From Candidatus Uhrbacteria bacterium (GTDB lineage: Bacteria > Patescibacteriota > Patescibacteriia > UBA9934 > GWF2-40-263), in NCBI GenBank assembly GCA_016844925.1, contig JAERTI010000041.1:1-62867 (forward strand): a stretch of DNA of 62,867 bases. The letters are read 5' to 3'. Each line of letters opens with the position of its first letter. Within the stretch, counting starts at the first letter, position 1. Below the pieces are notes generated by a model. The model had not been told where the DNA came from, searched no databases, and worked only from the letters and a program-made list of their open reading frames with translations. Shown here piece by piece: positions 2,304 to 62,867 of the stretch. The position numbers were made by a program, and so were the translations under genes.

Positions 2304-3623
2304 TTACACTTCTGACCGAGGGAAAAATAATCGTGCCGTCTTTAAAATAATCAACACATCAAGCAGAAGCGACCGGTTCTTAATGTAGTACAAGTCATAC
2401 TCAAACTTCTCTCGAGAATCCATCACTGAGCGGGCATAGCGAAAATTAATTTGCGCCCATCCAGTGAATCCTGGCTTAATCAAATGACGAATGTGATAGT
2501 GCGGAATTTCTTTTTCTAGCTTCGCCACGAACTCTGGACGCTCCGGACGTGGCCCAACAAGCGAGATATCCCCACGCAACACATTGATAAGCTGCGGCAA
2601 CTCATCCAGGTGTGAGGCGCGCAAAAACGCTCCGACACGCGTCACACGTGAATCACGCTTCTGTGCCCACTGTGCCCCATGTACCTCCGCATTCTTTCGC
2701 ATGGACCGAAACTTGTAGATGGAAAACAGTCGCCCATTCTTCCCCACCCGCCTCTGACTGTAAAACGCGGGACCACGATCCTCGATCTTCACCGCCAGAG
2801 CAATCAAGAGCCAGACAGGTAGTGTCAGCACAAGAATCACTAATGCAATGAGGAAATCCCCAATGCGCTTCACTTGCTGATACAGCCCATCGTGACGCTC
2901 AGCGACATTTTGCAAAAACCATTTCTGATCCACAGCAGACAACGGAATCTTCTTAGAAAAACGCTCATACACCTGAGCGAAACTCATGTACGACGTCCCC
3001 ATAGGGAGTGTGGCATACATCACCTGCATGAGTCCTGGATCAGAAACGGACAGGTGTGGTAGCGCAATAACATGAAGACGGTGCTGTTGAATCTTTACTG
3101 AGAGGGACGCGTCCAGATCTGAAAAGACCATGCTCTCAAAACCCAAATGCCCATGCAGACGAATGAGGGCATGCAAATCCTGCGCCTCTCTTGGGCTACC
3201 AAAAATCCCAATCCGCCATGGATTCAGCTTTGCTAACTTCCGAAAAAACAAACTGCGCCACAAAAGCGCCACACCCCCAAACAACGCCACATGAACAAGA
3301 AGGTTTACCTTAGGAGTAATGGCCGTTGTAGGAACTAGGTAAAAGTATGCTGAGCCCAGAGCAAACAACAGGATAAGGCCCCCAAGGAATCGTCCAAAGA
3401 ATCGCTGAGAGGAGGGCATTAGGGAGAGGTCATAGAGGCCCAGGACGTAAAAACCCACTAACCAAAGGATATAGACAAAGGAAAAAGGAAGGACATGTGT
3501 GGAAAATGGCTCTGCATAGATCTCCCCAAACCGAACCCACATGGTGAGCGCGAGCGTTCCGTACATGAGTACTATGTCCCCTAGAAGCAGGATGAATTTT
3601 TTCTCTCGTAAATGCATGTACAC
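2304..3623 (-). CDS. Polyprenyl glycosylphosphotransferase (WcaJ/WbaP-family initiating sugar transferase)
   Basis: N-terminal TM helices; Bac_transf motifs KR-x2-D, F-x-h-YKFRSM, D-x-RVT-x-VG-x-FLR-x3-LDELPQ, SLVGPRPE, KPG-x-TGWAQ, YDLYYIKN. Confidence 0.92.
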   Translation of the reverse strand: MYMHLREKKFILLLGDIVLMYGTLALTMWVRFGEIYAEPFSTHVLPFSFVYILWLVGFYVLGLYDLSLMPSSQRFFGRFLGGLILLFALGSAYFYLVPTTAITPKVNLLVHVALFGGVALLWRSLFFRKLAKLNPWRIGIFGSPREAQDLHALIRLHGHLGFESMVFSDLDASLSVKIQQHRLHVIALPHLSVSDPGLMQVMYATLPMGTSYMSFAQVYERFSKKIPLSAVDQKWFLQNVAERHDGLYQQVKRIGDFLIALVILVLTLPVWLLIALAVKIEDRGPAFYSQRRVGKNGRLFSIYKFRSMRKNAEVHGAQWAQKRDSRVTRVGAFLRASHLDELPQLINVLRGDISLVGPRPERPEFVAKLEKEIPHYHIRHLIKPGFTGWAQINFRYARSVMDSREKFEYDLYYIKNRSLLLDVLIILKTARLFFPRSEV

Positions 3624-18638: not shown

Positions 18639-19892
18639 ATGACGTTTTCTTCAATAAAACGAGGAGTCTACCGTTTCCTGAAGTGGTCTGAAAAGTATAC
18701 ACGAACGGACATGATCTATCTGGCAAGAGGGAGCTTTTGGATGTCTGCCAAACGCGTTGTGTACGTGGCCACAGCTTTTGTTGTCGCCATCACCTTCGCG
18801 AACTTCTTCCCTCAAGAAGCCTACGGTGAATACAAATATCTTCTCTCCATGGCAGGACTCCTGGCCATTGTCACCATGCGTGGACTCAATACGTCCTACC
18901 TCAGAACCGTCTCAAGGGGGTATGAGGGGATGTTCTGGCCTGTACTGCGCTCGCGTTTAAAATGGGGACTCTTGGCAAGCGTAGCTTCCGCTGCCGTTGC
19001 ACTATACTACTTCTACCAAGGAGATATCACCATGGCCACGGGATTCTTTCTCTCGGCACTATTTGTTCCGCCACTCAATGCCTTCACCGTATTCATCCCG
19101 CTGCTGAACGGACGAAAACATTTCCAGCTTTCCGCGCAATACGAAACCATCGTCCAGATAGTCGCAGCCACATCCATCATCGTCACGGTGCTCGCCACCG
19201 ATACCGTTGGCTGGGTGCTCCTCAGCTACTTTGTTTCGTATACCCTCATGCGCATCATCGTGACACATATCGTCACACAACGACATGCGCCCAACAACAA
19301 CACCGAAGACGACACCATCTCCTACGGAAGGCATCTCACCGCTATGGTCGCCATAGGGGACGTGGCCTCACGCATTGATTCTATTTTGACCTGGCATTTT
19401 TTAGGAGCCGTTCCACTTGCGATCTACTCCTTTGCCAACATGCCAACAAAACACCTGCGCTCCCTTGTCTCCAGCACAGGTCTTCTTGCCCTTATCAAAC
19501 TCTCTGAAAAAGATAAGGACAAAATAAAAAAGACCCTCCCCAGGAAGATCGGCATCTTTTTTCTTGGCATCGTGCCCATTGTCATCGCCTACATTCTTGC
19601 GGCACCCCTTCTTTTTCAAATCGCCTTTCCACAATACATCGAGGCGGTTCCCTACACCCAGGTCCTCTCACTGTCCCTGCTCTTCTATCCAAAGATTCTC
19701 TTTGGCTCTGCGCTCACTGCCCACGCAGAAAAAAAGTCGCTCTACATCATGAACATCACTACTCCCCTGGTGAACATCACTCTGCTACTCATCCTCCTTC
19801 CACTCTACGGAATTTGGGGACTTGTGGGTGCAACGCTCGGAACACAAGTCTTTAAAACAGGACTGCTCACCTGGCTCTTTATCCGAATGTAA
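18639..19892 (+). CDS. Wzx-like oligosaccharide flippase
   Basis: About 12 TM segments, MOP-family pattern (YGEYKY, G-x-YS-x-A, YGIWGLVGAT). Confidence 0.82.
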   Translation: MTFSSIKRGVYRFLKWSEKYTRTDMIYLARGSFWMSAKRVVYVATAFVVAITFANFFPQEAYGEYKYLLSMAGLLAIVTMRGLNTSYLRTVSRGYEGMFWPVLRSRLKWGLLASVASAAVALYYFYQGDITMATGFFLSALFVPPLNAFTVFIPLLNGRKHFQLSAQYETIVQIVAATSIIVTVLATDTVGWVLLSYFVSYTLMRIIVTHIVTQRHAPNNNTEDDTISYGRHLTAMVAIGDVASRIDSILTWHFLGAVPLAIYSFANMPTKHLRSLVSSTGLLALIKLSEKDKDKIKKTLPRKIGIFFLGIVPIVIAYILAAPLLFQIAFPQYIEAVPYTQVLSLSLLFYPKILFGSALTAHAEKKSLYIMNITTPLVNITLLLILLPLYGIWGLVGATLGTQVFKTGLLTWLFIRM

Positions 19893-21648
19893 ATCGTCGA
19901 AGTGTGCTCCGGATATACTTGATGAGCGACCGGCGCTTTGAATACTGTTCAACAATAAAACGGGCGGCCGCGGCATCTTGATCCGGCGCCTGTTTTTTAT
20001 ACCAAGGGCCTCCAAGATTCTTCTCCGCCCCCTGAAGGATGTAGGCTTCGATAGAATTACTCGTTGAAATCTCCTCTCCGTCCTTTAAGGCGAACTGAAA
20101 GTCCACAAGGGACACGGCCCCATCTTTTGTCAGAAGAATGTTACTTGGCCGAATATCTCGATGCTGTATCCGATGACGCTTGAGTGCCGCAAGGACTCGA
20201 TCTAGATCCCCCTTAAGCCCCTGTTGTTGCTTGGTACTTAGCGCATAAACCGACGCAAGACTTCTCCCTGGCTTTCTCTCAAGAACAAGATATCGTTGCC
20301 CCCCGTGATCAAACGCATCAATTACATCAGGAAAGAACGACTCAGATGCGACCTCGCGCAAGAACCGTTCCTCATGTTTGAGCAAAAATGTCCGCTGCGA
20401 ATCAGTCGTCTTGATAATAAGGTCTCGCCCCACAGCATACACACCGTACTTAATCCTCTTCGTACGTTTTAGTTCAGCCGTCCTACTTGAGAGACTTGGT
20501 TGCTCAGATAAATAGGAGAGATCCTCCGTCTGTGATACGAGCATATTCTTGAGAGCCCGAAAGAACGCCTTCGACCAGAAGAACGCTCGGTCGAACCCGT
20601 CTTTATGAAATTTTACTGACCGATCTTTTGGGACAGAGACTCTATAGTGATGCCCCTTAAGGTATTGCATCAACGTCGAACGACGCGGTTCTTGAAACAG
20701 CATTCCTGTAAGACGACTCTTATACTCCGGAGACAGTCCGCGTTTGTGAAAGACGCCGTGGTACAGAAGCGTCCAAAAATAATCCTCGTCGCTGAGCCGG
20801 TAAAACCCATCCTGCTCCACGCGTCGATTCAACAGATCCTGCTGCCATTTTTGATCGTAGTATCCATCCCCCACAAACCGAACATCAAATGGGATAGCGC
20901 CGTCTCCAACCTCGACCAAATGATGCACCCGATAGTTCTGTGGGAACACGGGACGTGCCCCGAGCAATAGAAGCGTCTTGTAATAGTCGTTCGTCAGAAC
21001 ATCAATGTCCTCATGCTCCATAGAGGTCCAGGCCTCAGGCCACCCCTCCCAGTTGCGCAGCACGGCGTAACGCGTGTGCTCGTTCAAAACATGGAAGACA
21101 TCTTGTGCCCGATCAAACTGTGGCACAGGAAGCTCCTTCAAACTCAATCCAGACGCTGTCTGCTCCGGCAGATAGATAACAGACTCTCTCGACTTGATCT
21201 CATCAAATGCTTCTCGCGACCCCCCCGTCAATGCCTGGAAGTTAAAAAATGCCTCCGTCTCCAGATCAGACGCATGAAGGTAATTGACGTTTTTTACTCG
21301 TCCAAGAAACACCGAATGGCCCTGAGAGGTAGATCGGTGACGCCGCTTGTGTCTGAGCGCCCGTTGATTGACCTCGCCCTTAATCTCAGGGGATTTATCG
21401 ACTACAAAAATAAAAACGAGTTGGTTTCCACCAATCTCCTTCATCTTTGGGCTGTTGTGATCAAAGTCACGATTGGGATACATGCGCGTGAGCATCTGCG
21501 GAACTTCCTCTTTCTCCCACTCAAGATGCTGGGCAAACTTGATTTCAAACTCTAACGAGAGCTCCCACAATATCTGAGAAAGATGCGCAAACCCGGACTG
21601 CCAGACAACAAAAATGTGAGCCTGAGGATCAACCGCGTTCATACCCAT
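19879..21648 (-). CDS. Multidomain protein: NDK-like N-terminus, nucleotidyltransferase-like middle, kinase-like C-terminus
   Basis: NYLHASD; YAVLRN...EDIDVL (DxD); HRDIRPSNILL...LVDFQFA. Confidence 0.65.
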   Translation of the reverse strand: MGMNAVDPQAHIFVVWQSGFAHLSQILWELSLEFEIKFAQHLEWEKEEVPQMLTRMYPNRDFDHNSPKMKEIGGNQLVFIFVVDKSPEIKGEVNQRALRHKRRHRSTSQGHSVFLGRVKNVNYLHASDLETEAFFNFQALTGGSREAFDEIKSRESVIYLPEQTASGLSLKELPVPQFDRAQDVFHVLNEHTRYAVLRNWEGWPEAWTSMEHEDIDVLTNDYYKTLLLLGARPVFPQNYRVHHLVEVGDGAIPFDVRFVGDGYYDQKWQQDLLNRRVEQDGFYRLSDEDYFWTLLYHGVFHKRGLSPEYKSRLTGMLFQEPRRSTLMQYLKGHHYRVSVPKDRSVKFHKDGFDRAFFWSKAFFRALKNMLVSQTEDLSYLSEQPSLSSRTAELKRTKRIKYGVYAVGRDLIIKTTDSQRTFLLKHEERFLREVASESFFPDVIDAFDHGGQRYLVLERKPGRSLASVYALSTKQQQGLKGDLDRVLAALKRHRIQHRDIRPSNILLTKDGAVSLVDFQFALKDGEEISTSNSIEAYILQGAEKNLGGPWYKKQAPDQDAAAARFIVEQYSKRRSLIKYIRSTLRRFTFG

Positions 21649-52981: not shown

Positions 52982-54409
52982 CTATTCAACGATTCCCTCA
53001 GGGATACCTTTAATCCAGTCGTACATCGTCCCCTCAGAAAGCTCTCGCATGATGCGGTACGCCTCATCGCCATCTGCCATGTAGTGACGTTCGAATGTTT
53101 CGGGATGAACATACCAGGCCTCACCAACAGAATCGACTTGCAGCAGGATGCGCCCAGCAACAGACCGAGCTAAGGAACTCACCGTATCTCCAGATCCTGC
53201 CTCGGGAATCTGCTCAAGGTTGGCTGTTGTGATTCCTAGTCCAAACGTACGGAGGAACTCATAGGCCGTTGGGCCGTCAGCAAGATAGTACCGCGCCTTA
53301 GTCACAGGATCGACATAGTACGCCTCCCCCGCACGGTCGACGGCAAGCATAATCCACCCCTCTAACCGGTCGACAAGCGAACGTACTTCACTGTCAGGTG
53401 TACTCACCAACTCCTCTCCTGTCTCTCCAGCCCAGTGCACCTTGCTGTCGTAGCTAATTGTCTCCCAAGCATTTGGGTAATCAATCTTGCTACTTTTTTG
53501 CACCTTGAATGTCCATGACTCCTCAAAACTCCCAGCGTCAGACTCCCCCTCAACATGAACCGCGTACTCATGATCGAGCTCTAGCTCATCGATTGGATTG
53601 AAGAATACGGCTCCCCAGGAATTCTCATCTTCTAGATCCAACGAGATGATTGAATCAATCGCCTCCTCAGCCGTTAGGTCATACACCGACACCTCTACTG
53701 ATTCGACCGTGTCTCCCAGTGGCCAGTACATGAGGGTTGGTCCGATGAACTGGTACGCATACTCAGGATACGGCATCGGGTTCTCGCTTACATAGAATGT
53801 TGTTGAGATCGTCTGACCGTCATAGGGGTAGGTCACTGCTCCAGTCTCCGTAGTGTACTCACTCCCCCAGTCAGAAATGTTGTACCCAATATCACAGACA
53901 AACCACCCAGAATCAATGACACATCCAACTTCACTAAAGTACGGATACATCATGCTCACGCGGTGATACGGCGTCATCATGAGCGCATCGATCGCACTGT
54001 ACCCATCGCCATTGGCAGCGCCGCCAGCTTGCACCTCCGTACAGCTGCCCGTGTACCCAGCGGCCTCACATCGATCCTGCGTTGTCTCGCCAGTGAACCC
54101 AACGTTCCCCTCGACTTCCCCGTGCGGATCAAACCCACGACCATTGGCCTTCAAATATTCCACGTGCGCCGCCGCGCTCTCCTGCAGCTGACTCGAGACC
54201 TTCAAGCGCGGAACCCCAAGACGTTCACGATAGCGATTCAAATAATGCTCAAGGTCAATCTCACGCACATCCCCATCACGCACATGGGTGTACTCCTCAG
54301 GAGCGGTCAGGTCATCCGTCCACGAATGATCTGTAGAAATCGTCGGTGAAGCAGCAACAAGCTGTAGTGGCAGGGCCAGCAACACGGCAAAAGAAAGAAA
54401 TCGTTTCAT
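52982..54409 (-). CDS. Secreted CAP/SCP-domain protein with two C-terminal CPR-type repeats
   Basis: YLNRYR-x2-LG...L-x2-SA-x2-H...H...PYHR...F-x-EVG; repeats G-x-I-x-L-x-V-x3-GEA-x-YV-x-P...R-x-Y. Start revised to ATG 54409. Confidence 0.82.
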   Translation of the reverse strand: MKRFLSFAVLLALPLQLVAASPTISTDHSWTDDLTAPEEYTHVRDGDVREIDLEHYLNRYRERLGVPRLKVSSQLQESAAAHVEYLKANGRGFDPHGEVEGNVGFTGETTQDRCEAAGYTGSCTEVQAGGAANGDGYSAIDALMMTPYHRVSMMYPYFSEVGCVIDSGWFVCDIGYNISDWGSEYTTETGAVTYPYDGQTISTTFYVSENPMPYPEYAYQFIGPTLMYWPLGDTVESVEVSVYDLTAEEAIDSIISLDLEDENSWGAVFFNPIDELELDHEYAVHVEGESDAGSFEESWTFKVQKSSKIDYPNAWETISYDSKVHWAGETGEELVSTPDSEVRSLVDRLEGWIMLAVDRAGEAYYVDPVTKARYYLADGPTAYEFLRTFGLGITTANLEQIPEAGSGDTVSSLARSVAGRILLQVDSVGEAWYVHPETFERHYMADGDEAYRIMRELSEGTMYDWIKGIPEGIVE

Positions 54410-54498
54410 ATGCACCGAGTATACCAAACAAAACACAGGGCTCGATGCCCTGTGTTTTGTTAACCCCCACCACCCCACCATCCAGCCGTTTCACCACG

Positions 54499-54647
54499 GC
54501 GAACGAGCGCTGGGACAATTTTGAGTCGGACAGTGTCTCTGTAGATCTCAAAATTCGTCCCAGTGATCGGCTCGCCCACTCATAGCAAGACCACACGACC
54601 ACCATCTCAACCCCGCTCAGCGCGGCCATGCAGGCTCGATGAGTATT
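54499..54647. repeat. Structured intergenic repeat, copy 1
   Basis: 102/110 identical to 62739-62848, plus a shared CAGGCTCGATG tail; forms a ~80-nt hairpin. Confidence 0.9.
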
Positions 54648-54697
54648 TGTGCCTTGTTCTATGAATATTCCACCTCTTTTGCTACGATACGGCACAT

Positions 54698-55684
54698 ATG
54701 TCACGTATTCTCACTGCCCTGCAACCATCGGGCATCCTCCACATCGGTAACTACTTTGGAGCCATTGAGCCCATGGTTCGACTCCAAGAAGAAGGGAACG
54801 AAAATATCTTGTTCGCCGTTGATTACCACGCCATCACCGTCCCTCAGGACCCAGGTGATCTTCGCGCCAACCTTTACTATGCCATCGCTACCTACCTGGC
54901 TGCCGGTATCGATCCAGAAAAAACCATCCTCTTCCAACAGTCCCGTGTCCGCGAGCACACTGAACTTGCATGGATCCTCAACTGCATCGCTCACATGGGA
55001 GAGCTTGAGCGCATGACGCAGTTCAAAGATAAAGCCGTTGGCAAAGGAGAAGCTGTAACCGTCGGACTGTTTGATTACCCCGTTCTCATGGCTGCCGACA
55101 TCTTGCTCTACGATACGGAAGTCGTTCCGGTGGGAGAAGATCAAAAACAACACCTGGAGCTTGCACGTGATCTAGCAGAGCGCTTCAACAACCGCTTTGG
55201 TGATACCTTCATCGTGCCAGAGCCACGCATCCGCACTCAGGGGGCTCGCATCATGGGACTAGACGATCCAACCAAGAAGATGAGTAAGTCTGCGAGCTCT
55301 GAGCGCAACTACATCTCCCTCATGGATGATGAAAAGAAAGTGATCAAGAAGATTAAGACAGCGGTGACTGATTCAGAAGGAATCGTGAAAGCCGACCGTG
55401 CTCGTGAAGGTATCTTCAACCTCCTCTCCATCTACTCACTGGTCACCGGACGCCCCGCAAGCGAGATCGAGGTAGATTATGAAGGAAAGGGCTATGGGGA
55501 TTTCAAAAAGGACCTTGCCGGAGAAATCAACACGTTCCTTGCGCCGATCCAAGACAAGATTACCGAGTACCTAGACGACAAACAGCAGCTCATTGAGATC
55601 CTTGATGCCGGCGCTGAGCGCGCGCAGGCATTGGCAGAGGAGAAAATGAAGGTGGTCCGGGATCGCATTGGCGTGACACTTTAA
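54698..55684 (+). CDS. trpS: Tryptophan--tRNA ligase
   Basis: QPSG-x-LHIGNY (HIGH), YPVLMAADILLY, VPVGEDQ-x-QH, KMSKS. Confidence 0.96.
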   Translation: MSRILTALQPSGILHIGNYFGAIEPMVRLQEEGNENILFAVDYHAITVPQDPGDLRANLYYAIATYLAAGIDPEKTILFQQSRVREHTELAWILNCIAHMGELERMTQFKDKAVGKGEAVTVGLFDYPVLMAADILLYDTEVVPVGEDQKQHLELARDLAERFNNRFGDTFIVPEPRIRTQGARIMGLDDPTKKMSKSASSERNYISLMDDEKKVIKKIKTAVTDSEGIVKADRAREGIFNLLSIYSLVTGRPASEIEVDYEGKGYGDFKKDLAGEINTFLAPIQDKITEYLDDKQQLIEILDAGAERAQALAEEKMKVVRDRIGVTL

Positions 55685-55714
55685 ACCCAAAAACAGGGCG
55701 ATGGCCCTGTTTTT
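55678..55714 (+). repeat. 22-bp direct repeat plus terminator at the trpS 3' end (left copy)
   Basis: ACTTTAAACCCAAAAACAGGGC (55678-55699) followed by gatg-GCCCTGTTTTT. Confidence 0.85.
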
Positions 55715-55742
55715 TGACAGAGCAACTTTGAGACCCTATTGT
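55714..55742 (+). promoter_or_regulatory. Sigma70 promoter for the CSLREA gene; -35 overlaps the trpS terminator T-tract
   Basis: TTGACA-17 nt-TATTGT. Confidence 0.6.
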
Positions 55743-55843
55743 AGACTCACAATTAACAACGGATCCTGTGTAGAGCCTTATAGCTTATCCGTTCAACCAT
55801 TACCTAACAGGAAAGGGGTGCTAATCACATTGGCCCTCTTTTT

Positions 55844-58015
55844 ATGTTACTACGCAATACCTTTGCTCGTATCTTCCCCTTGTTTCTAGCAACGATCGTT
55901 GCCCTACTGTTTGCACAACCTGCACACGCAGGAACCATCACCGTCAATACTGTTCTTGATGAACCTCCTAGCAGCATTGGAACACCAAATGGACTTTGTA
56001 CGCTCCGAGAAGCTGTATGGTCTGCGAATAATGACGCGAGCGCAGGTGATTGCGCACCAGGAAGCGGTGCTGACACCATTGTGTTACCCAACCCACTTAC
56101 TGGTGGTGAAGTAACAAATCTCAATCCTGAATACGTCCTGGAATTTCCCGACGCAAGTGCTACTGGTGATAGAGCGCTCACTATTTCAAGTGACGTGACT
56201 ATTCACGCCCCTACTCAGACACTCGTAAAACGATCTACAGCAATAGAAACACCTTTTTTCCGTCTCTTTAACGTAACAAATTCAAGCGACGGTGAGGGGA
56301 ATCCTATTGCATCAACACTTCGTTTAGAAAATCTCACACTCGAAAATGGCCACGTCGAAGGCAGTGTCATTGGCCAAGATCCAACAGATGGTGGAGCCAT
56401 TAAGGTCTACGGAAGCCGACTTGTGCTAATAAACACCCTCATTCAATCAAATACCGCCTCTGGAAGAGGAGGTGCTATTAGCGCATCAAGTGTCGGCATG
56501 CCAGGATCACAATCACACTCATTGATTCATGCCATTGATAGCCGCATTGAAAACAACCAAGCTGGAACTGGAGGAGGTATTTCCATCATGGCTGGCTCAG
56601 AACTCATACTTGATCGATCAAGTGTCTCTTTCAATGATGCCGTTGGTTTTGAATACATCGAAGGTGCCATGGGGACCTCTAATTGGAATGCGGGAGGTGG
56701 AGGCATTCACGTACATTCGAGCGAGATCAGCATAAATGACTCAGCCATCGAAAAGAATTCAGCATATGGTTATTACAATGAAGAACAACCTTCAAGTCAA
56801 CTTGGTGGCGGAGGGGTACACCTGTATAACAGCCGTGCTCACGTATCGAATAGTCGAATCATAAATAACTCAATCAATGGGGACTATCTTGCGTTCGGGG
56901 GCGGTGTCTTTTCTTGGGAAAGTGATGTGCTGTTGGATGAGCAAACCTACATCAGTGGAAACGAATCTATTCGAACAGATGGTCGTGGAGGCGGACTGAC
57001 AGCATTCGACTCAACGCTTAACATCTTTGACTCCATCTTCCTAGCCAATATCTCGCAAGGTAATGCTGGCGGCCTCTATCTAGATGACTCGAGCACCCAC
57101 ATTGAAAACAGCACCATTTCCCACAACGTGGCCATCAAGCAGGGTGGAGGAGTTGGTGCTTTAGGTGGATGGCTATCCATTAACACCAGCCTCCTTCACG
57201 GGAACCAAGGAGAAAATGGTGGAGGGATTTGGCAAACATCCTCAAATGGACTACGTATAGATGACTCCACACTTGTTGGCAACTTCACAACAGGTGATCC
57301 GCACAATCTTGATGGGCTTGGTGGTGGTATCTATGCCGCTGGAGGCACACTCACCCAAATTAACAGGACAACCATCAAAGAGAACATCGCATTCAACGGT
57401 GGAGGAATTCACAGCATAGGAGATCTGCAAGTAGAGGCGAGCACCATTTCTCATAACACAGCCAATGGGGACGGAGGTGGAATTCATACTGACTACGGCC
57501 AACTCATCAACACTACCGTTTCAGAAAACTACGCCAACGAGAATGGTGGAGGGATTTTTGGATCAACTCTCTCTCCATATCGACTCAGAATCTTATCCTC
57601 GACTATTGCAAACAACCATGGACGATACGGTGCAGGAATCTTTGCCCAAAATTCCACAACCCCACAAGTCGTCCTTGCCAATTCCATTGTTGACCAAGGA
57701 CAAACATCCTCCCCAAGTGCTCCAAACTGCTATGGAGATATTGGCTCCGATGGATATAACCTCATCTCCAATAACGTTGGCTGTAACTTCATTGCCACAA
57801 CTGGAGATATTGTCGGAACACCAACCAACCCAATCAGCGCCCTCCTTGGAACACTCACCAATAATGGTGGCCCCACACAAACGCATGCATTAAGCCCGGA
57901 CAGCCCTGCTATAAACGCAGGTGACAACACCCAGTGCCCAACAGAAGACCAACGTGGATTTGCACGAACGTTGAGTGCCACAGACCCATGTGACATTGGA
58001 TCGTACGAACTTTAA
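55844..58015 (+). CDS. Secreted CSLREA-domain/parallel beta-helix (GG-repeat) protein with choice-of-anchor Q-like C-terminus
   Basis: ITVNT-x2-D...CTLREAV-x2-AN; many N-x4-GGG/A-h repeats; L-x-NNGGPTQTHAL-x2-DSPAINAG...C...DQRG-x2-R...CDIGSYE. Confidence 0.88.
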   Translation: MLLRNTFARIFPLFLATIVALLFAQPAHAGTITVNTVLDEPPSSIGTPNGLCTLREAVWSANNDASAGDCAPGSGADTIVLPNPLTGGEVTNLNPEYVLEFPDASATGDRALTISSDVTIHAPTQTLVKRSTAIETPFFRLFNVTNSSDGEGNPIASTLRLENLTLENGHVEGSVIGQDPTDGGAIKVYGSRLVLINTLIQSNTASGRGGAISASSVGMPGSQSHSLIHAIDSRIENNQAGTGGGISIMAGSELILDRSSVSFNDAVGFEYIEGAMGTSNWNAGGGGIHVHSSEISINDSAIEKNSAYGYYNEEQPSSQLGGGGVHLYNSRAHVSNSRIINNSINGDYLAFGGGVFSWESDVLLDEQTYISGNESIRTDGRGGGLTAFDSTLNIFDSIFLANISQGNAGGLYLDDSSTHIENSTISHNVAIKQGGGVGALGGWLSINTSLLHGNQGENGGGIWQTSSNGLRIDDSTLVGNFTTGDPHNLDGLGGGIYAAGGTLTQINRTTIKENIAFNGGGIHSIGDLQVEASTISHNTANGDGGGIHTDYGQLINTTVSENYANENGGGIFGSTLSPYRLRILSSTIANNHGRYGAGIFAQNSTTPQVVLANSIVDQGQTSSPSAPNCYGDIGSDGYNLISNNVGCNFIATTGDIVGTPTNPISALLGTLTNNGGPTQTHALSPDSPAINAGDNTQCPTEDQRGFARTLSATDPCDIGSYEL

Positions 58016-58045
58016 ACCCAAAAACAGGGCCAAAGCCCTGTTTTT
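58009..58045 (+). repeat. 22-bp direct repeat plus terminator (right copy)
   Basis: ACTTTAAACCCAAAAACAGGGC (58009-58030) followed by caaa-GCCCTGTTTTT. Confidence 0.85.
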
Positions 58046-58147
58046 GGATTGACAAAATCCGTATTTTCAGGCAAGGTCGGCCGTTACAACCGCAGGAAAT
58101 AGGCTCATTTAGGGCCCGGTTGTATCCCGCCAGAACAGAGAGGAGTA

Positions 58148-59467
58148 ATGGCACAACCCACATTGGCATGTCTCCAGCTTGATGGAACCATCACGCAGGA
58201 AAGCTGGGATGATGTGCAAGCGAGTGTCCGGCGCATCAAGGCGTTCTTCGCCGCACTGCGCCTGCGCTTCATCGGACGTGACCCACTGATCGACCGGATC
58301 GAGTACGCCATGCTTCGGCGTGGACACGTGCTGACCTACGGAGATGCGGGCACTGGCAAGACCGCCATCACCAAGCAGATCAAGCGTGGCACCGAAGGCA
58401 TGCGCTTGTTCTCCATCGGACTGACCGCCGAGATCACCGAAGACAAGCTCTTCGGTGAGCCGGACTGGGCACACTGGCGCGAGCACCACGAGATGCGCCG
58501 CCAAATCGAGGGTTCCATCCTCGATGCCCACCTGGTGCACCTGGGTGAGTACCTCAACGCCGGTGTTCAGCTCCTGGAGGCTCTCAACGACTTCCTGGAG
58601 GACCGCGACTACCGCCACGGCAAGCAAGTGCTCGAGCACTGCCCGCTGATGACCGCGCTGGCCGACACCAACGTGGACCCCATCAAGGCCATGGAGGAAG
58701 ACGAGAAGCTCATCCCGGTCATCGACCGGTTCATGTTCCTCTTTCCCGTCACCACGCTCACCAAGACCGAGGACCTCAGCCGCATGCTGCGCCTGAACCT
58801 CGGCCGAGAGCGTGCCAAGCCTCTGCCGCCGCTCACCCTCGAGGACCTCGTGCGTGTCAGCGGCGTCAGCCACGGCAGCGACCTGTTCGACGACCCGGTC
58901 ATCGAGCAAGCCTACGTGGAGCTCTACCAGCACTTCAGCGAAGCCACTGGTGAGCGAGTCACCAACCGGACCTTCTGCAAGATCGCAGAGCTGGCCGAGG
59001 TGGAAGCCATGATGCAGGGACGCCAGCGTGTCATGCTGGACGACCTGCGCGTCACGGGCCTCGGGCTCGTGCGCCGCGATGGTGAGCAGGAGGCATTCGA
59101 CGAGGCCATCGCCAAGATTGTCGAAGGCAAGTGGAAGCAACAGGAGCACCGCGCGCGCGTCCGCGCAGAAGAAGAGTTCCTGGACAACGTGGCTCGTCAG
59201 ATTCCCAGCGAGGAAGAGATCGAGGCACAAGCAACCGTTCGGTTCATCAGCATTCTCAAGCAGCTCAAGGACTCCGACGAACTGCTGGACAAGGCCACCA
59301 TGACCTCGCAGCGCAACCGGGATCGTCACGCGCGCCTGCGTGCGGACATCGAGATGCGCAAGCTCGCGCTCTTCGGACGCGCGGACGCTGCCACCGACCC
59401 CAAAAAGGTCGAGGACGACATCTCAGCCCTGCTGCAGGACGAAGACACCGACGAAGAGAGCTCCTGA
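58148..59467 (+). CDS. MoxR/RavA-like AAA+ ATPase with C-terminal helical extension
   Basis: FIGRD-x2-I, Walker A GDAGTGKT, KLFGEP, atypical Walker B LVHLGE, A-x-TN, R-finger DRF; GAGGAG SD. Confidence 0.85.
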   Translation: MAQPTLACLQLDGTITQESWDDVQASVRRIKAFFAALRLRFIGRDPLIDRIEYAMLRRGHVLTYGDAGTGKTAITKQIKRGTEGMRLFSIGLTAEITEDKLFGEPDWAHWREHHEMRRQIEGSILDAHLVHLGEYLNAGVQLLEALNDFLEDRDYRHGKQVLEHCPLMTALADTNVDPIKAMEEDEKLIPVIDRFMFLFPVTTLTKTEDLSRMLRLNLGRERAKPLPPLTLEDLVRVSGVSHGSDLFDDPVIEQAYVELYQHFSEATGERVTNRTFCKIAELAEVEAMMQGRQRVMLDDLRVTGLGLVRRDGEQEAFDEAIAKIVEGKWKQQEHRARVRAEEEFLDNVARQIPSEEEIEAQATVRFISILKQLKDSDELLDKATMTSQRNRDRHARLRADIEMRKLALFGRADAATDPKKVEDDISALLQDEDTDEESS

Positions 59468-60699
59468 TGGATCCGCTCACCCTTGCGGCGCTGATCGCCC
59501 TTGGGGCGAGCGGCGCGATCGGTGGAACAGCCGGAGCCGTTGCGCTCTATCGGGCGATCATCAAGGCAGGTTTCCCCAAGACCACTCCCGCCGGCGAACC
59601 GATCACCTACGAAAGGTTCTCCGTCAAGGAGATGGCCAAGGAGATGGCCCGCCGCGTGGTCATCACCCACACCCTCATCACCGTCGGCAGAGAGCAGACG
59701 GGAAAGAAGGCCGTGGGTGAACGTGTCATTCGCCAAGAAAAGACAGGTGAAAGACAAGTTGACGAGAAGGTGGTGGGGCACCGAATCACTGGCTACCAGA
59801 AGGTAGGCGAGGAGAAAGTAGGTGAAAAACAGGTAGATGAACGCGTGGTTAACCACCGCTGGGAGGAATCCCCGGTGCCAGCAGATCGCGTGCACCTGCG
59901 CCCCATCCGGGGACTGCACGAAGCCCATCGTCGCCCCGCCTCAGAGCTCCTGCTTCCGGACGACATCCAAGAGATGCGCATGATCACCGGTCGTGCCCCC
60001 GTCCTCGTCTTTCAACGCCGCGTCCCCGTCATGGAGCCGGTCATGGAAGACATCATGGAAGACGTGCTCCAGCCGATCACCGAGCCGGTGACCGAACCCA
60101 TCATGGAAGACATCATGGTGGACGTGACTGAGACCATCTGGGAACCCGTCTACGAGCCGATCACCCGCAAGCGCACGCATGGAGTGTACCTGCTCATCGA
60201 CTACTCCAACTCCACGCGCACGTACCTGATGGATACGACGCAAGGTGTCGTCCGAGGGTACCCTTGGCGAGGCAAGCTCAGTGACCAGGCGGCCCAACGG
60301 GTGTTTGAGCGCTGCAAGGAAGAGGGAATCCCCTTCTTCTGCCGCGCCTTCCACCACGAAGCTGAATCGCTTTTCAGCTGGCGACCTGGTGATCCCGAAG
60401 ACGGACTCAAGACGTACTTCCGACGGTGCGACACTGGTGGCACGGACATTGCTCACGCAATCGAGTGCGCCATCCACGATCTGACGGCAGAGGGCCTCGA
60501 CTCGGCGGATCTGATGATCCACACCGACGGCGAGGACCAGAACCTCAGCTCTGCGCTCCGACGACGGCTGGACCAAGTAAACGTGCGCATGCACGTTCAG
60601 CTCTACGGTGTCGAGAACGAGACGCTCCGCCGCCTCGCTCACACCTGGTCGCTCTGCCCGACGGAGAACTACATCTCTCAGGTGGTCACCAACCCCTGA
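59467..60699 (+). CDS. Membrane-anchored vWA-domain protein with repeat stalk (MoxR partner)
   Basis: ATG overlaps the MoxR TGA; N-terminal Gly/Ala-rich TM; MIDAS IDYSNS...GGTDI...TDGED. Confidence 0.85.
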   Translation: MDPLTLAALIALGASGAIGGTAGAVALYRAIIKAGFPKTTPAGEPITYERFSVKEMAKEMARRVVITHTLITVGREQTGKKAVGERVIRQEKTGERQVDEKVVGHRITGYQKVGEEKVGEKQVDERVVNHRWEESPVPADRVHLRPIRGLHEAHRRPASELLLPDDIQEMRMITGRAPVLVFQRRVPVMEPVMEDIMEDVLQPITEPVTEPIMEDIMVDVTETIWEPVYEPITRKRTHGVYLLIDYSNSTRTYLMDTTQGVVRGYPWRGKLSDQAAQRVFERCKEEGIPFFCRAFHHEAESLFSWRPGDPEDGLKTYFRRCDTGGTDIAHAIECAIHDLTAEGLDSADLMIHTDGEDQNLSSALRRRLDQVNVRMHVQLYGVENETLRRLAHTWSLCPTENYISQVVTNP

Positions 60700-60795
60700 G
60701 ACACGCGAGCTCCAAGCTCACCCCACCGGCACGCCCCGGTGGTTTTTTCTTTGCCCAAATCAAAAACCTCGGGAGTCGTATCCCGAGGGGTCGTG

Positions 60796-62076
60796 TCAGC
60801 GCTGGGCGCTGAGGTTCTGCTTGGGCCAGATGGAGCCAGCTCGGTTGTAGTCGACGATCCACTGGTTGCCCACGTTGTAGCGACGAAACTGTCCCACGTC
60901 GGAGGGGTGGTCGGTCCAGGGGCCATTGGCTCCCTCAGGATCGCTCCACTTCACCGTGAGCGTCTGACTCTTGTCGAGCTTCTGGTCACTCCCCCTGGCC
61001 GCCAGAGCTGGCGGCGTAAGGTTGTGATCGCTCCCTCGCGTAGTCTTGCGATCCTTCTCAGGCCAGGTGTCGTACTTGTAGTCGCACCAGTCCTCGTAGA
61101 CCTCGTCGCCACCAGGGTGACAGGCGTCGTGGACGGTCGTGGTGTCCTGACACGTATCCACACAGACCTCTTCCAAGATCTCCGTCTGGGAACCGTCCTC
61201 GTTGTCCTGCCAGTCGCCCGAAGGCACCATGGAACAGTTGCACGGATAGGGCGAACCCACGTTCTCCTCATGCGGATTGCACGTGATGTGCGTGCAGTCG
61301 ACAGTCTCCTTGTGCTTGTTGGTACAGGACTCCGCGTAGGTGCTCATGGGCATGTCGGACTTCCAGTCCGACCCCGTGTGCACCTTGCGCTCCTTGAGCA
61401 CGTGCGTGATCTCCCAGCCGATCGAGTCGACCTGGGCGACGGTCTCGTGCTTGCCGAAGAAGTGAATGCACATCCAGACGATCAGCACGACCGCCAAGAG
61501 GCCTCCACCCCAGACCATGATCTTGGCGAACGGATCGCCATCGACACGGACGGGGCCCGGGTCATCGTAGAGCGGCGCCGGAGCAGGTCGTCGCGAACGC
61601 GTCGACTCAAGTGCCCGGCGAGGGGCAGGTGGTGGTCGCAGCGGAGGCGGCGCAGGTCGCGCAGGCTCCGTTTCCGGCAGCGGACCGTCCGCGTAGTCGC
61701 GTCCATCCATGCCGGCGCCGCAGTTCACACAGCTGCGCAGCGGCTTGCCATCGACGTCGATGACGGTGCTCTCGCCCTCGCAGTACTCGCACGGAACGTT
61801 GGCCCCCTTGGCCGTTCGGTCCAGAGAGTCCTTGTCGGTGATGAGCACGGTCGCGGACGGATCCTGGTACTCCTCCCCCTCTGCCTTGGCCGACTTGGCC
61901 GAGCCGCAGTTGGGACAGTGCGTACGCGTGGCATCGAAGACCTCCTTGGAGATCTCGTCAGCTTGCCACTTCTTGTAGTAGGCACCGATCTCCACGACCG
62001 TGCCACATTGCGCGCAGGGCCATGAAGACCATCTGCGCCTTTTCCCTAGCTGGGTCTTCCCAGTTTTATGAGCCAT
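60796..62076 (-). CDS. Zn-ribbon/Pro-rich/TM/Cys-rich ectodomain membrane protein
   Basis: CAQC, CPNC, CEYC, CVNC; Pro-rich linker; TM IMVWGGGLLAVVLIVWMCIHFF; Cys-rich C-terminal region; GGAGG SD before ATG 62076. Confidence 0.8.
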   Translation of the reverse strand: MAHKTGKTQLGKRRRWSSWPCAQCGTVVEIGAYYKKWQADEISKEVFDATRTHCPNCGSAKSAKAEGEEYQDPSATVLITDKDSLDRTAKGANVPCEYCEGESTVIDVDGKPLRSCVNCGAGMDGRDYADGPLPETEPARPAPPPLRPPPAPRRALESTRSRRPAPAPLYDDPGPVRVDGDPFAKIMVWGGGLLAVVLIVWMCIHFFGKHETVAQVDSIGWEITHVLKERKVHTGSDWKSDMPMSTYAESCTNKHKETVDCTHITCNPHEENVGSPYPCNCSMVPSGDWQDNEDGSQTEILEEVCVDTCQDTTTVHDACHPGGDEVYEDWCDYKYDTWPEKDRKTTRGSDHNLTPPALAARGSDQKLDKSQTLTVKWSDPEGANGPWTDHPSDVGQFRRYNVGNQWIVDYNRAGSIWPKQNLSAQR

Positions 62077-62131
62077 GGGACCTCCGAAGTGTCGAGAACG
62101 CATGCACCTTTTGCTCGTTCTCGGACGCGAT

Positions 62132-62197
62132 AAAGTAAACAAAATCAGGCTTTTTGTCAATACTTCCATTGACAATCGGCCCTTCATTTGTTATTCT
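62132..62197. promoter_or_regulatory. Back-to-back sigma70 promoters (Zn-ribbon gene and rnpB)
   Basis: Minus: TTGACA(62160-62155)-17 nt-TACTTT; plus: TTGACA(62169-62174)-17 nt-TATTCT. Confidence 0.7.
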
Positions 62198-62204
62198 CCT
62201 CCTC

Positions 62205-62634
62205 GTCTTAGGACTATCGGATGGCTACGTGCTGCTTGCAGTACGAGGAAAGTCCGAACACCCGATGTTCCGTAAGGGGCATCGACAAAGAAAGTTGCTA
62301 ACGGCGACCAGGTATAAGATCAGAGATTCAGGAGCTGGAATACTGCTCCTGAGCATCATGATCAAAGCCTAGGGAAAGTGCCACAGAGACAATACTAGCC
62401 CGGCTTGCCGGGTGAAACGTGAAAAGTGATGTGATGTTACTCGATCAGTCGGTCGAGCTGGCTACACATCTCGCCCCGTGGCGACACGGTGGCGTGGTAA
62501 ACCCTTTCTGGTGTAAGAGCAAATTTGGTAGCTCGCACGACCCAGCCAGCAATGGTTGGGCTAGATAAATTGCCATCTCCCCGAGGTAGTCGCCCCGGGC
62601 AGACAAAATTCGGCTTACAGATAGCTCCTAAGAC
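62205..62634 (+). ncRNA. rnpB: RNase P RNA
   Basis: GAGGAAAGTCC and ACAAAATTCGGCTTAC (P4), GAAAGTGCCACAGA, GGTAAACC, P1 GTCTTAGGACTATC/GATAGCTCCTAAGAC. Confidence 0.95.
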
Positions 62635-62705
62635 ACCAAAACACACGGCCAAGCGCCGTGTGTTTTGGTCCCAAAAAATTGAGTCCTCGATGGACTCAAT
62701 TTTTT
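62635..62705. terminator. Two tandem bidirectional terminator hairpins after rnpB
   Basis: ACCAAAACACACGGC-caagc-GCCGTGTGTTTTGGT and AAAAAATTGAGTCC-tcgat-GGACTCAATTTTTT. Confidence 0.8.
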
Positions 62706-62738
62706 ACCATCTCCCCACCTCCCCCGCGGCCTACACCA

Positions 62739-62867
62739 GCGAACGAGCGCTGGGACAATTTTGAGTCGGATAGTGTCCCTATAGATCTCAAAATTCGTAC
62801 CAGTGATCGGCTCGCCCCATCATAGCGAGACCACACAACCACCATCTCGACAGGCTCGATGTGTATT
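62739..62867. repeat. Structured intergenic repeat, copy 2 (reaches the window end)
   Basis: Near-identical to 54499-54647. Confidence 0.9.

Follow-up and report, generated by a model that had tools for sequence, protein, structure and literature searches.

A clade-restricted, structure-conserved intergenic repeat with a predicted terminator role in marine Uhrbacteria

The locus and the modules of the element

The window analyzed here is a whole contig of 62,867 bases from Candidatus Uhrbacteria (CPR), which carries three copies of a non-coding element, all on the plus strand. Copy 1 lies between a CAP-domain gene (52982-54409, minus strand), which diverges from it, and trpS (54698-55684, plus strand), which begins ~50 nt to its right. 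Copy 2 follows the RNase P RNA gene rnpB (62209-62634, plus strand, identified by Rfam) and the gene's own terminator (62638-62668), and is truncated by the contig end. Copy 3, which is decayed (2081-2237), lies between two minus-strand genes, 3' of a paralog of the Bac_transf family, and is antisense to both neighbours. A plain repeat search of the window reveals only the two near-identical copies; the third was detected as a match to a covariance model built on four copies (E = 5e-10), and a second model agrees (E = 3.5e-20). The initial annotation, which described a two-copy feature, was therefore wrong on this point, both because of the third copy in the contig and because of the depth-based estimate of roughly 15-35 copies per genome (see below).

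In all 10 copies identified in the window and in its relatives, which were reached via TrpS homologues and their contigs, the element consists of four modules in a fixed order and orientation: a short hairpin (H1), a spacer, a long imperfect hairpin (H2), and a tail. H1 is a perfect palindrome of 12-16 bp in which an A-run and a T-run are embedded, and each of its strands has a T-run. Its stem is locus specific and its loop, CTCGATG (a C-G closing pair around TCGAT), is invariant; in the ~230 kb scanned, the element follows every stem-loop with a CTCGATG loop. In copy 1, H1 (54428-54460) is a perfect 14-bp palindrome, ACAAAACACAGGGC / GCCCTGTGTTTTGT, with the loop TCGAT (CTCGATG occupies 54441-54447), and the flanking A-run and T-run give it the look of a bidirectional terminator. 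In copy 2, H1 (62673-62705; AAAAAATTGAGTC / GACTCAATTTTTT, loop CTCGATG) starts 4 nt past the terminator of rnpB. The hairpins with a C(TCGAT)G loop that had been reported to the left of these two copies, each followed by a C-rich stretch, are indeed there, and both are perfect. H1 of copy 3 is also intact (2082-2114, AAAAAAAATGAAGAG CTCGATG CTCTTCATTTT) and is followed by a C/T-rich spacer.

The spacer (54461-54497 in copy 1, 62706-62737 in copy 2) is ~26-38 nt long, very C-rich and G-poor (21 C and 2 G among the 37 nt of copy 1), and ends with CACACC-R. H2 is ~79 nt long, is bounded by GCGA...TCGC, forms a palindrome of ~35 bp per arm, and has a conserved apex, GAGTCGG ... GATCTCA, with a bulged T. 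It is the most conserved part of the element and has the highest copy count, and both the conservation and the fixed order reach beyond it on either side. H2 of copy 1 (54498-54576, GGCGA...TCGCC, 32 model pairs) and H2 of copy 2 (62738-62816) are 92% identical. The tail is C/A-rich and nearly G-free. In copy 1 (54577-54647) it bears a 20-nt insert variant and ends with GCAGGCTCGATGAGTATT; in copy 2 (62817-62867) the contig ends right after GCTCGATGTGTATT, which is an assembly break at the repeat. Despite their differing sequences, the spacer and tail have an extreme excess of C and shortage of G on the plus strand, whatever the copy or species; both tails in L023 and the tail of copy 1 in L025, two of the relatives, have only 0-1 G in 31-57 nt.

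The tails differ between lineages. Those of type A (the window lineage) end with GCTCGATGWGTATT, a motif that is absent from types B and C (L023 and L025), and the shared CAGGCTCGATG-x-GTATT stretch that had been noticed after the 20-nt indel is present in both window copies. When the window tails (54577-54647 and 62817-62867) are compared with those of the sister strain L013 (9860-9955 and 19370-19460), both L013 copies are seen to carry two tails in tandem, ...GCTCGATGAGTATT + AATGCGTATACGAAG + CATCTC..CCCGCTCAGCGCGGCCATGCAGGCTCGATGARTATT. Copy 1 of the window retains only the second of these, and the reads suggest that copy 2 retains only the first, so that the window tails look like the products of two different deletions between direct repeats.

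Several features of the neighbourhood are worth recording in their own right. On the minus strand, the spacer complements (54461-54497 and 62706-62737) contain at least four G-runs, such as GGTGGGGTGGTGGGGG, and could therefore form a G-quadruplex; that of copy 2 includes a perfect Shine-Dalgarno-like GGAGGTG. The stem of the rnpB terminator is nearly the same in L025 (17646-17676) and in the window (62638-62668), ACACACGG / CCGTGTGT, and its loop reads CTCGATG in the former and CCAAGCG in the latter, where a separate CTCGATG hairpin comes after it. Stems of the AAAACAC(A)GGG type are common to many terminators of this genome and may therefore come from a small set. The trpS start looks leaderless, behind a predicted extended -10 box, TGCTACGAT, and another predicted extended -10 box, TGGTATACT, is found on the minus strand in the stretch that separates H1 from the ATG of the CAP-domain gene. 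These two genes and the sugar-transferase gene (compared at 54675-54700 and 54409-54428 of the window and at 14135-14165 of L023) seem to start ~7-10 nt past such a box (TGCTATACT in the third case) with no Shine-Dalgarno sequence, and their mRNAs look leaderless or near-leaderless. Two of the three window copies adjoin Bac_transf-family genes, copy 3 being located 3' of one paralog (2304-3623, minus strand) and copy 2 located 5' of another; these paralogs (the second compared at 19487-20899, plus strand, in L013) share 40% identity in the C-terminal domain. Such adjacency may be a coincidence.

Copy number and distribution among relatives

The sequence was found in seawater and marine metagenome runs, where the depth of its core far exceeds that of its flanks. 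The core is covered at 347-614 versus ~30 for the flanks in run X1, the ratios are similar in X2-X4, and further estimates of core depth are 534 versus 30 and 387 versus 30; in the metagenome runs that contain the strain of the window, core depth is ~17-fold the flank depth. Long contigs of the same depth (59, 58, 48, 26, and 11 kb) have an end within the element and differ in their flanks. Summed contig depths suggest ~17 copies in the X1 strain and up to ~30 in the X3/X4 strain, both being rough figures, and by the depth ratio the family has about 15-35 intergenic copies per genome. The exact core of this organism was absent from the large sequence collections scanned: a pattern scan returned only chance matches in unrelated phyla from genome contigs, only coding or unrelated sequence from metagenome contigs, and no matches from viral contigs.

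In the ancestral gene order of this region, rnj - (CAP-domain gene) - trpS - rnpB - sugar transferase (Bac_transf), the element can occupy two sites, one before trpS and one after rnpB. In 233 kb, the models recognize exactly ten copies. The element stands at both sites in the window (which has the additional copy at 2081-2237), in the sister strain L013, and in L023 and L025, each with two copies, and L021 has a single copy, after rnpB. No copies were found in L019 and L027-L031, which were searched with filters off, and the corresponding spacers of L019, L021, and L027 are short and evidently unoccupied. Copies from related species at the trpS and rnpB sites share 55-67% identity in the H2 core. 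In the single-gene TrpS tree, the carriers fall into one clade of six with 100/99 support, and L019, with neither site occupied, branches within this clade. Therefore, both sites were occupied in the ancestor of the clade, and some copies were lost later. So far, the element has been found only in one marine clade of tiny-genome Uhrbacteria.

Both orthologous copies have been kept, along with their pairing, across species whose TrpS proteins are 76-81% identical, and the element runs parallel to its upstream and downstream genes at all four orthologous sites of trpS and rnpB. No insertion junctions or target-site duplications could be defined, the empty sites in L019, L021, and L027 being too diverged for base-exact comparison. 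The earlier statement that CTCGATG brackets the element holds in the window lineage; in L023 and L025 the right-hand CTCGATG is absent, and the direct repeat around the element is confined to type A.

The interval between trpS and rnpB (55685-62208 in the window) is a variable island, which is empty in L021 and L027/L028, contains a small remnant ORF in L019 and two genes in L023, and in the window, L013, and L025 carries a MoxR-vWA-Zn-ribbon module together with different extras. The genomes with an island are those that have copies of the element on both sides of trpS...rnpB. The ORF in L019 (11184-11363, minus strand) encodes a membrane-like product of 59 aa and may represent a vestige or a shortened version of the Zn-ribbon membrane protein found at the same position in the window.

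Conserved pairing and comparison with known families

The segments 54499-54608 and 62739-62848 of the two near-identical copies match in 102 of 110 positions, as originally reported, and differ at 54531, 54538, 54541, 54559, 54578, 54579, 54587, and 54597. The substitution of T-A in copy 2 for the C54531-G54541 pair is a real compensatory change, 54538 is a change in the loop, and the change at 54559 disrupts a pair. The core does fold into a hairpin, both strands of copy 1 being more stable than shuffled sequences (z = -7.4 and -7.0). In agreement with the view that the element is non-coding, there is no conserved reading frame, the changes are mostly non-synonymous, and the stop codons differ between copies; a search with the spurious ORFs translated from the element returned only the query.

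In a model-guided alignment of the ten copies, 90.8% of the cells are paired, and sliding the partners by 1-3 columns lowers the pairing to 30-43%. Changes on both sides are seen in 19 of the 44 pairs versus 9.9 ± 1.8 in shuffled alignments, none of which (0 of 500) reach 19. H1 is 100% paired, and 9 of its 12 pairs covary; H2 has seven covarying pairs. Between two close strains, H1 of copy 2 has undergone two full compensatory swaps, from TTGAGTC/GACTCAA to TGGAGGC/GCCTCCA, with the loop unchanged. In copy 3 only 26 of the 39 scorable pairs are Watson-Crick, all mismatches being within H2. The pairing of the element is thus maintained by compensatory changes, and its structure is under selection. 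The comparison of G-U with A-C cells (11 versus 17) gives no strand signal, which fits a palindrome that acts on both strands or as DNA. Neither does the folding energy single out a strand, type A folding slightly better as the plus strand and type B better as the minus strand.

The modules differ in the way they evolve. Between orthologs from the two strains, H1 is 88-100% identical and the spacer 91-92% identical, versus only 58-64% and 49-57%, respectively, between paralogs. The H2 cores of paralogs, by contrast, share 92-98% identity, and the core of copy 1 in L013 is 98% identical to that of window copy 2 versus 94% to that of its own ortholog. Both L025 copies and copy 2 of L023 belong to type B, and the window copies and the L021 copy to type A. 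The H2 cores are therefore homogenised, whereas the flanking modules evolve in place; gene conversion or replacement from active copies could be what keeps the cores alike.

The absence of a known RNA family, which the initial annotation had concluded by inspection, is borne out by the Rfam scan of the window, in which only rnpB and three tRNAs were recognized. No Rfam 15 family reaches its gathering threshold on the element. The best sub-threshold matches, mir-54 (24 bits versus 70) and ar9 (23 versus 45), are chance hairpin or terminator matches. The element is thus neither a known riboswitch or other Rfam family nor a pair of copies devoid of further covariation: the 19 pairs changed on both sides exceed the shuffled controls. 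A T-box leader, which the position of copy 1 before trpS might bring to mind, was rejected for lack of an Rfam T-box match and since the element also precedes the sugar-transferase gene and is found antisense between other genes. A composite transposon bounded by copies 1 and 2 would have to contain trpS and rnpB, and the variable island lies inside the interval without adjoining the copies. Integron attC sites are not a match either, as the copies do not coincide with cassette boundaries, intI is missing from their vicinity, and reading of the ends shows no GTTRRRY core. Nor are these REP/REPIN units, since a comparison of types A, B, and C shows no conserved palindromes in the H2 arms, and a GTAG-like motif is likewise missing. 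No blastn match pointed to a relation with phages or plasmids.

The closest parallels are in behaviour. Like the BIMEs, REP (PU) sequences, and REPINs of Proteobacteria, the element is extragenic, multi-copy, and hairpin forming, is a mosaic of palindromic and non-palindromic modules, persists vertically, and evolves in concert; the ~100-nt REPIN hairpin resembles H2, and the location at gene ends, as terminators or mRNA stabilisers, parallels the function predicted here. In contrast to those families, the element has no sequence similarity to them and no GTAG-type tetranucleotide, is present in tens rather than hundreds of copies, has H2 arms that are not palindromic REPs, and conserves the loop, not the stem, of its terminator hairpin. 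The ERIC/IRU and RU-1/2/3 "small mobile sequences" of enterobacteria are likewise imperfect palindromes (100-170 bp) with tens of intergenic copies, a MITE-like presence/absence pattern among relatives, and one long hairpin on either strand (PMC2759123), and ERIC sequences are usually co-transcribed with genes (PMC2759123). The element differs from them in phylum and sequence, and its long palindrome is but one module of an oriented H1-spacer-H2-tail unit.

The Correia (Neisseria) and RUP (Streptococcus) MITEs are also short, non-coding, and multi-copy and have inverted-repeat arms; they can carry promoters or terminators and alter the expression of their neighbours, and the element has a predicted terminator. 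Unlike them, the element is conserved beyond its inverted repeat, and its orthologous copies have been kept with compensatory changes over deep divergence. Dispersed copies with presence/absence among relatives, as expected of MITEs, are evident from the depth, the flanks, and the occupied versus empty sites; no cognate autonomous IS was detected among the scanned proteins of the 63-kb window. On the whole, the element behaves most like a BIME/REP/REPIN, an ERIC-type element, or a MITE, and by sequence it is a member of none of these. No described counterpart seems to exist for a conserved loop carried on perfect, locus-specific stems and joined, in a fixed orientation, to a long hairpin that is homogenised, and no paper on dispersed structured repeats in CPR/Patescibacteria was found in the literature.

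Possible roles of the element

Our preferred explanation, to which we give roughly an even chance of being right, is an intergenic mosaic repeat of the REP/BIME/ERIC/MITE kind that is restricted to one clade, present in many copies, and conserved in structure, acting at the DNA level and used as a terminator. Judging from sequence and position, its most likely role would be to end and insulate transcription. H1 combines a stem-loop, a T-run, and a location at gene 3' ends, the attributes of an intrinsic terminator. It begins a few bases past the rnj stop codon in L023 and L025 and is the only hairpin after rnpB in L025, and in copy 3 it follows the minus-strand sugar-transferase gene, with a run of 8 T on the minus strand. 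These positions at the ends of rnj, rnpB, and the gene next to copy 3 are the reason to predict that H1 is used as a terminator from either side. In window copy 1, H1 is located between the predicted divergent promoters of the CAP-domain gene and trpS, and in window copy 2 it is a second hairpin, located behind the rnpB terminator. A simple terminator scan did not call H1, probably because its T-run is inside the stem. The initial annotation had this hairpin ending a minus-strand transcript. Its terminator-like character stands; it is not, however, specific to the minus strand, being symmetric and, in relatives, located on the plus strand directly behind the rnj stop codon and the rnpB 3' end.

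Under the portable-terminator explanation, H1 would stop transcripts that arrive from either side, and the whole unit would both stop transcription and insulate neighbouring transcription units that are closely packed, with the C-rich, G-poor stretch and H2 reinforcing the stop or stabilising 3' ends. The invariant H1 loop and the bulged H2 apex (GAGUCGG / GAUCUC) could be contacts for a putative protein, which may also spread or homogenise the element. Since intrinsic termination needs no invariant loop, something beyond termination appears to be selected. The invariance of the loop and apex and the excess of C over G are more than termination requires and suggest a protein partner and a single-strand (RNA or ssDNA) role. 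The strong C-over-G asymmetry of the spacer and tail in particular points to a single-strand role, which the repeat/terminator model leaves unexplained in detail, and the retention of two orthologous copies with their pairing would be explained by a host function, as an RNA gene or a cis element, no less readily than by a selfish repeat. The Pfam scan of 26 window proteins revealed no transposase, RAYT, or recombinase, and no mobility enzyme was seen beside the copies in the contigs of relatives. Of the two alternatives originally offered for the locus, a new ncRNA or a mobile palindrome, each keeps some probability; what has stood is a structured repeat with compensatory evolution, and what has fallen is the picture of a two-copy ncRNA gene.

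An unlikely alternative is that the copies are minus-strand genes for a family of small RNAs. Transcripts would start within the tail or immediately beyond it on the right, close to the divergent promoter of the gene downstream or overlapping it, run through the complement of H2 and a G-rich single strand (Shine-Dalgarno-like in copy 2, GGAGGUG), and end at H1, where the CAUCGAG loop would act as a protein or RNA contact. Every copy has a T-run on the minus strand at H1; in window copy 1 there is no plus-strand gene for H1 to end, and in copy 2 H1 is a second hairpin behind the terminator that rnpB already has. Conservation of the structure and of some single-stranded motifs across species also speaks for such a family, as does, in copy 1 of L013 (type A), an extended -10-like TGCTATGAT seen by reading on the minus strand just to the right of H2. 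That box, however, is not kept in window copy 1, in copy 2 of L013, or in types B and C, and the sequence revealed no consensus promoter. Multi-copy sRNA families with homogenised cores do exist, namely, Qrr, csRNA, and LhrC. Like Qrr1-5, the csRNAs, and LhrC1-5, the element has homogenised paralogs, each with an intrinsic terminator (predicted in this case) and a conserved single-stranded motif; unlike these families of 4-7 members, it has ~15-35 copies, a number without precedent for an sRNA family in a genome of ~1 Mb, and shows no conserved promoter. The balance of 17 versus 11 cells does not clearly favour the minus strand either, given that one terminal pair contributes 5 of the 17, and copy 3, in a 3' UTR position, is decayed. 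The element was not found in RNA runs, from which the organism is absent, and the runs that matched rnpB contained only conserved rnpB pieces of other organisms.

A further proposal, which we put forward as a conjecture with a low probability, is that the element is the cis-module of an undescribed system specific to this CPR clade, in which a dedicated protein would read the C(UCGAU)G loop on any stem together with the bulged H2 apex. The ~15-35 copies would then be either structured RNAs of ~150-220 nt with their own terminators or hairpin-loop-directed mobile "portable terminators" that copy themselves or convert their relatives.

It is quite improbable, in our estimate, that the element works in cis at the RNA level on the plus strand, where read-through past H1 would expose the C-rich, G-poor stretch as a rut-like loading zone for Rho, H2 would serve as a hairpin for pausing or for RNase III-type processing, and this two-stage terminator would shield the next promoter. 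RNase III cuts long irregular duplexes of just this kind, and H2 is a long irregular duplex. The spacer and tail are C-rich and G-poor on the plus strand in all copies and species, and the element is parallel to the neighbouring genes at the four orthologous trpS and rnpB sites. Copy 3, however, is antisense to both of its neighbours, and such a mechanism does not require the H1 loop or the H2 apex to be invariant.

Still more doubtful is a DNA site for a hairpin-reading enzyme (a HUH nuclease, a RAYT, or a tyrosine or serine recombinase), with the H1 loop as the recognition or nick site and H2 as a folded single-strand substrate, which would make the whole a non-autonomous module for mobility or recombination. 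In Rep/HUH nick sites, the loop is conserved and the stem is variable yet perfectly Watson-Crick paired, a pattern that H1 shares; the conserved bulged base in the conserved H2 apex, the fixed orientation of all copies, the gain and loss of sites among species, and a trpS-rnpB interval that is variable exactly in the genomes with both copies are all in line with such a site. However, no gene of this kind was seen near any of the 10 copies, the element does not form a cassette boundary (the variable island lies between trpS and rnpB and does not adjoin the copies), and no excision or insertion junction was observed. The stem-loops at Rep/HUH nick sites in the dso of rolling-circle plasmids and in circovirus and geminivirus origins share the invariant loop, variable stem, and fixed orientation; the element differs from them in being chromosomal and multi-copy, in its terminator-like A/T-run flanks, and in having no Rep gene nearby, so that the similarity is one of resemblance only. 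Finally, a one-off segmental duplication of a non-functional spacer, suggested by the mere two near-identical copies in the plain repeat search, is refuted by the third copy in the window, by the ~17-fold core depth excess with many distinct flanks, and by the diverged orthologs with compensatory changes in three other species.

CPR/Patescibacteria have small, tightly packed genomes, about whose non-coding DNA very little is known. The family described here is an interspersed structured repeat of the bacterial REP/BIME/ERIC-like type, in a phylum for which none has been described. A genome of ~1 Mb maintains tens of copies of this ~200-nt two-hairpin module, the pairing of which has been preserved over genus-level divergence. 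The repeat explains break points in the assemblies of these organisms, and the two covariance models (R1 and R2) can be used to mark the boundaries of transcription units. The invariant loop on variable stems, in turn, provides a handle for finding the putative protein partner.
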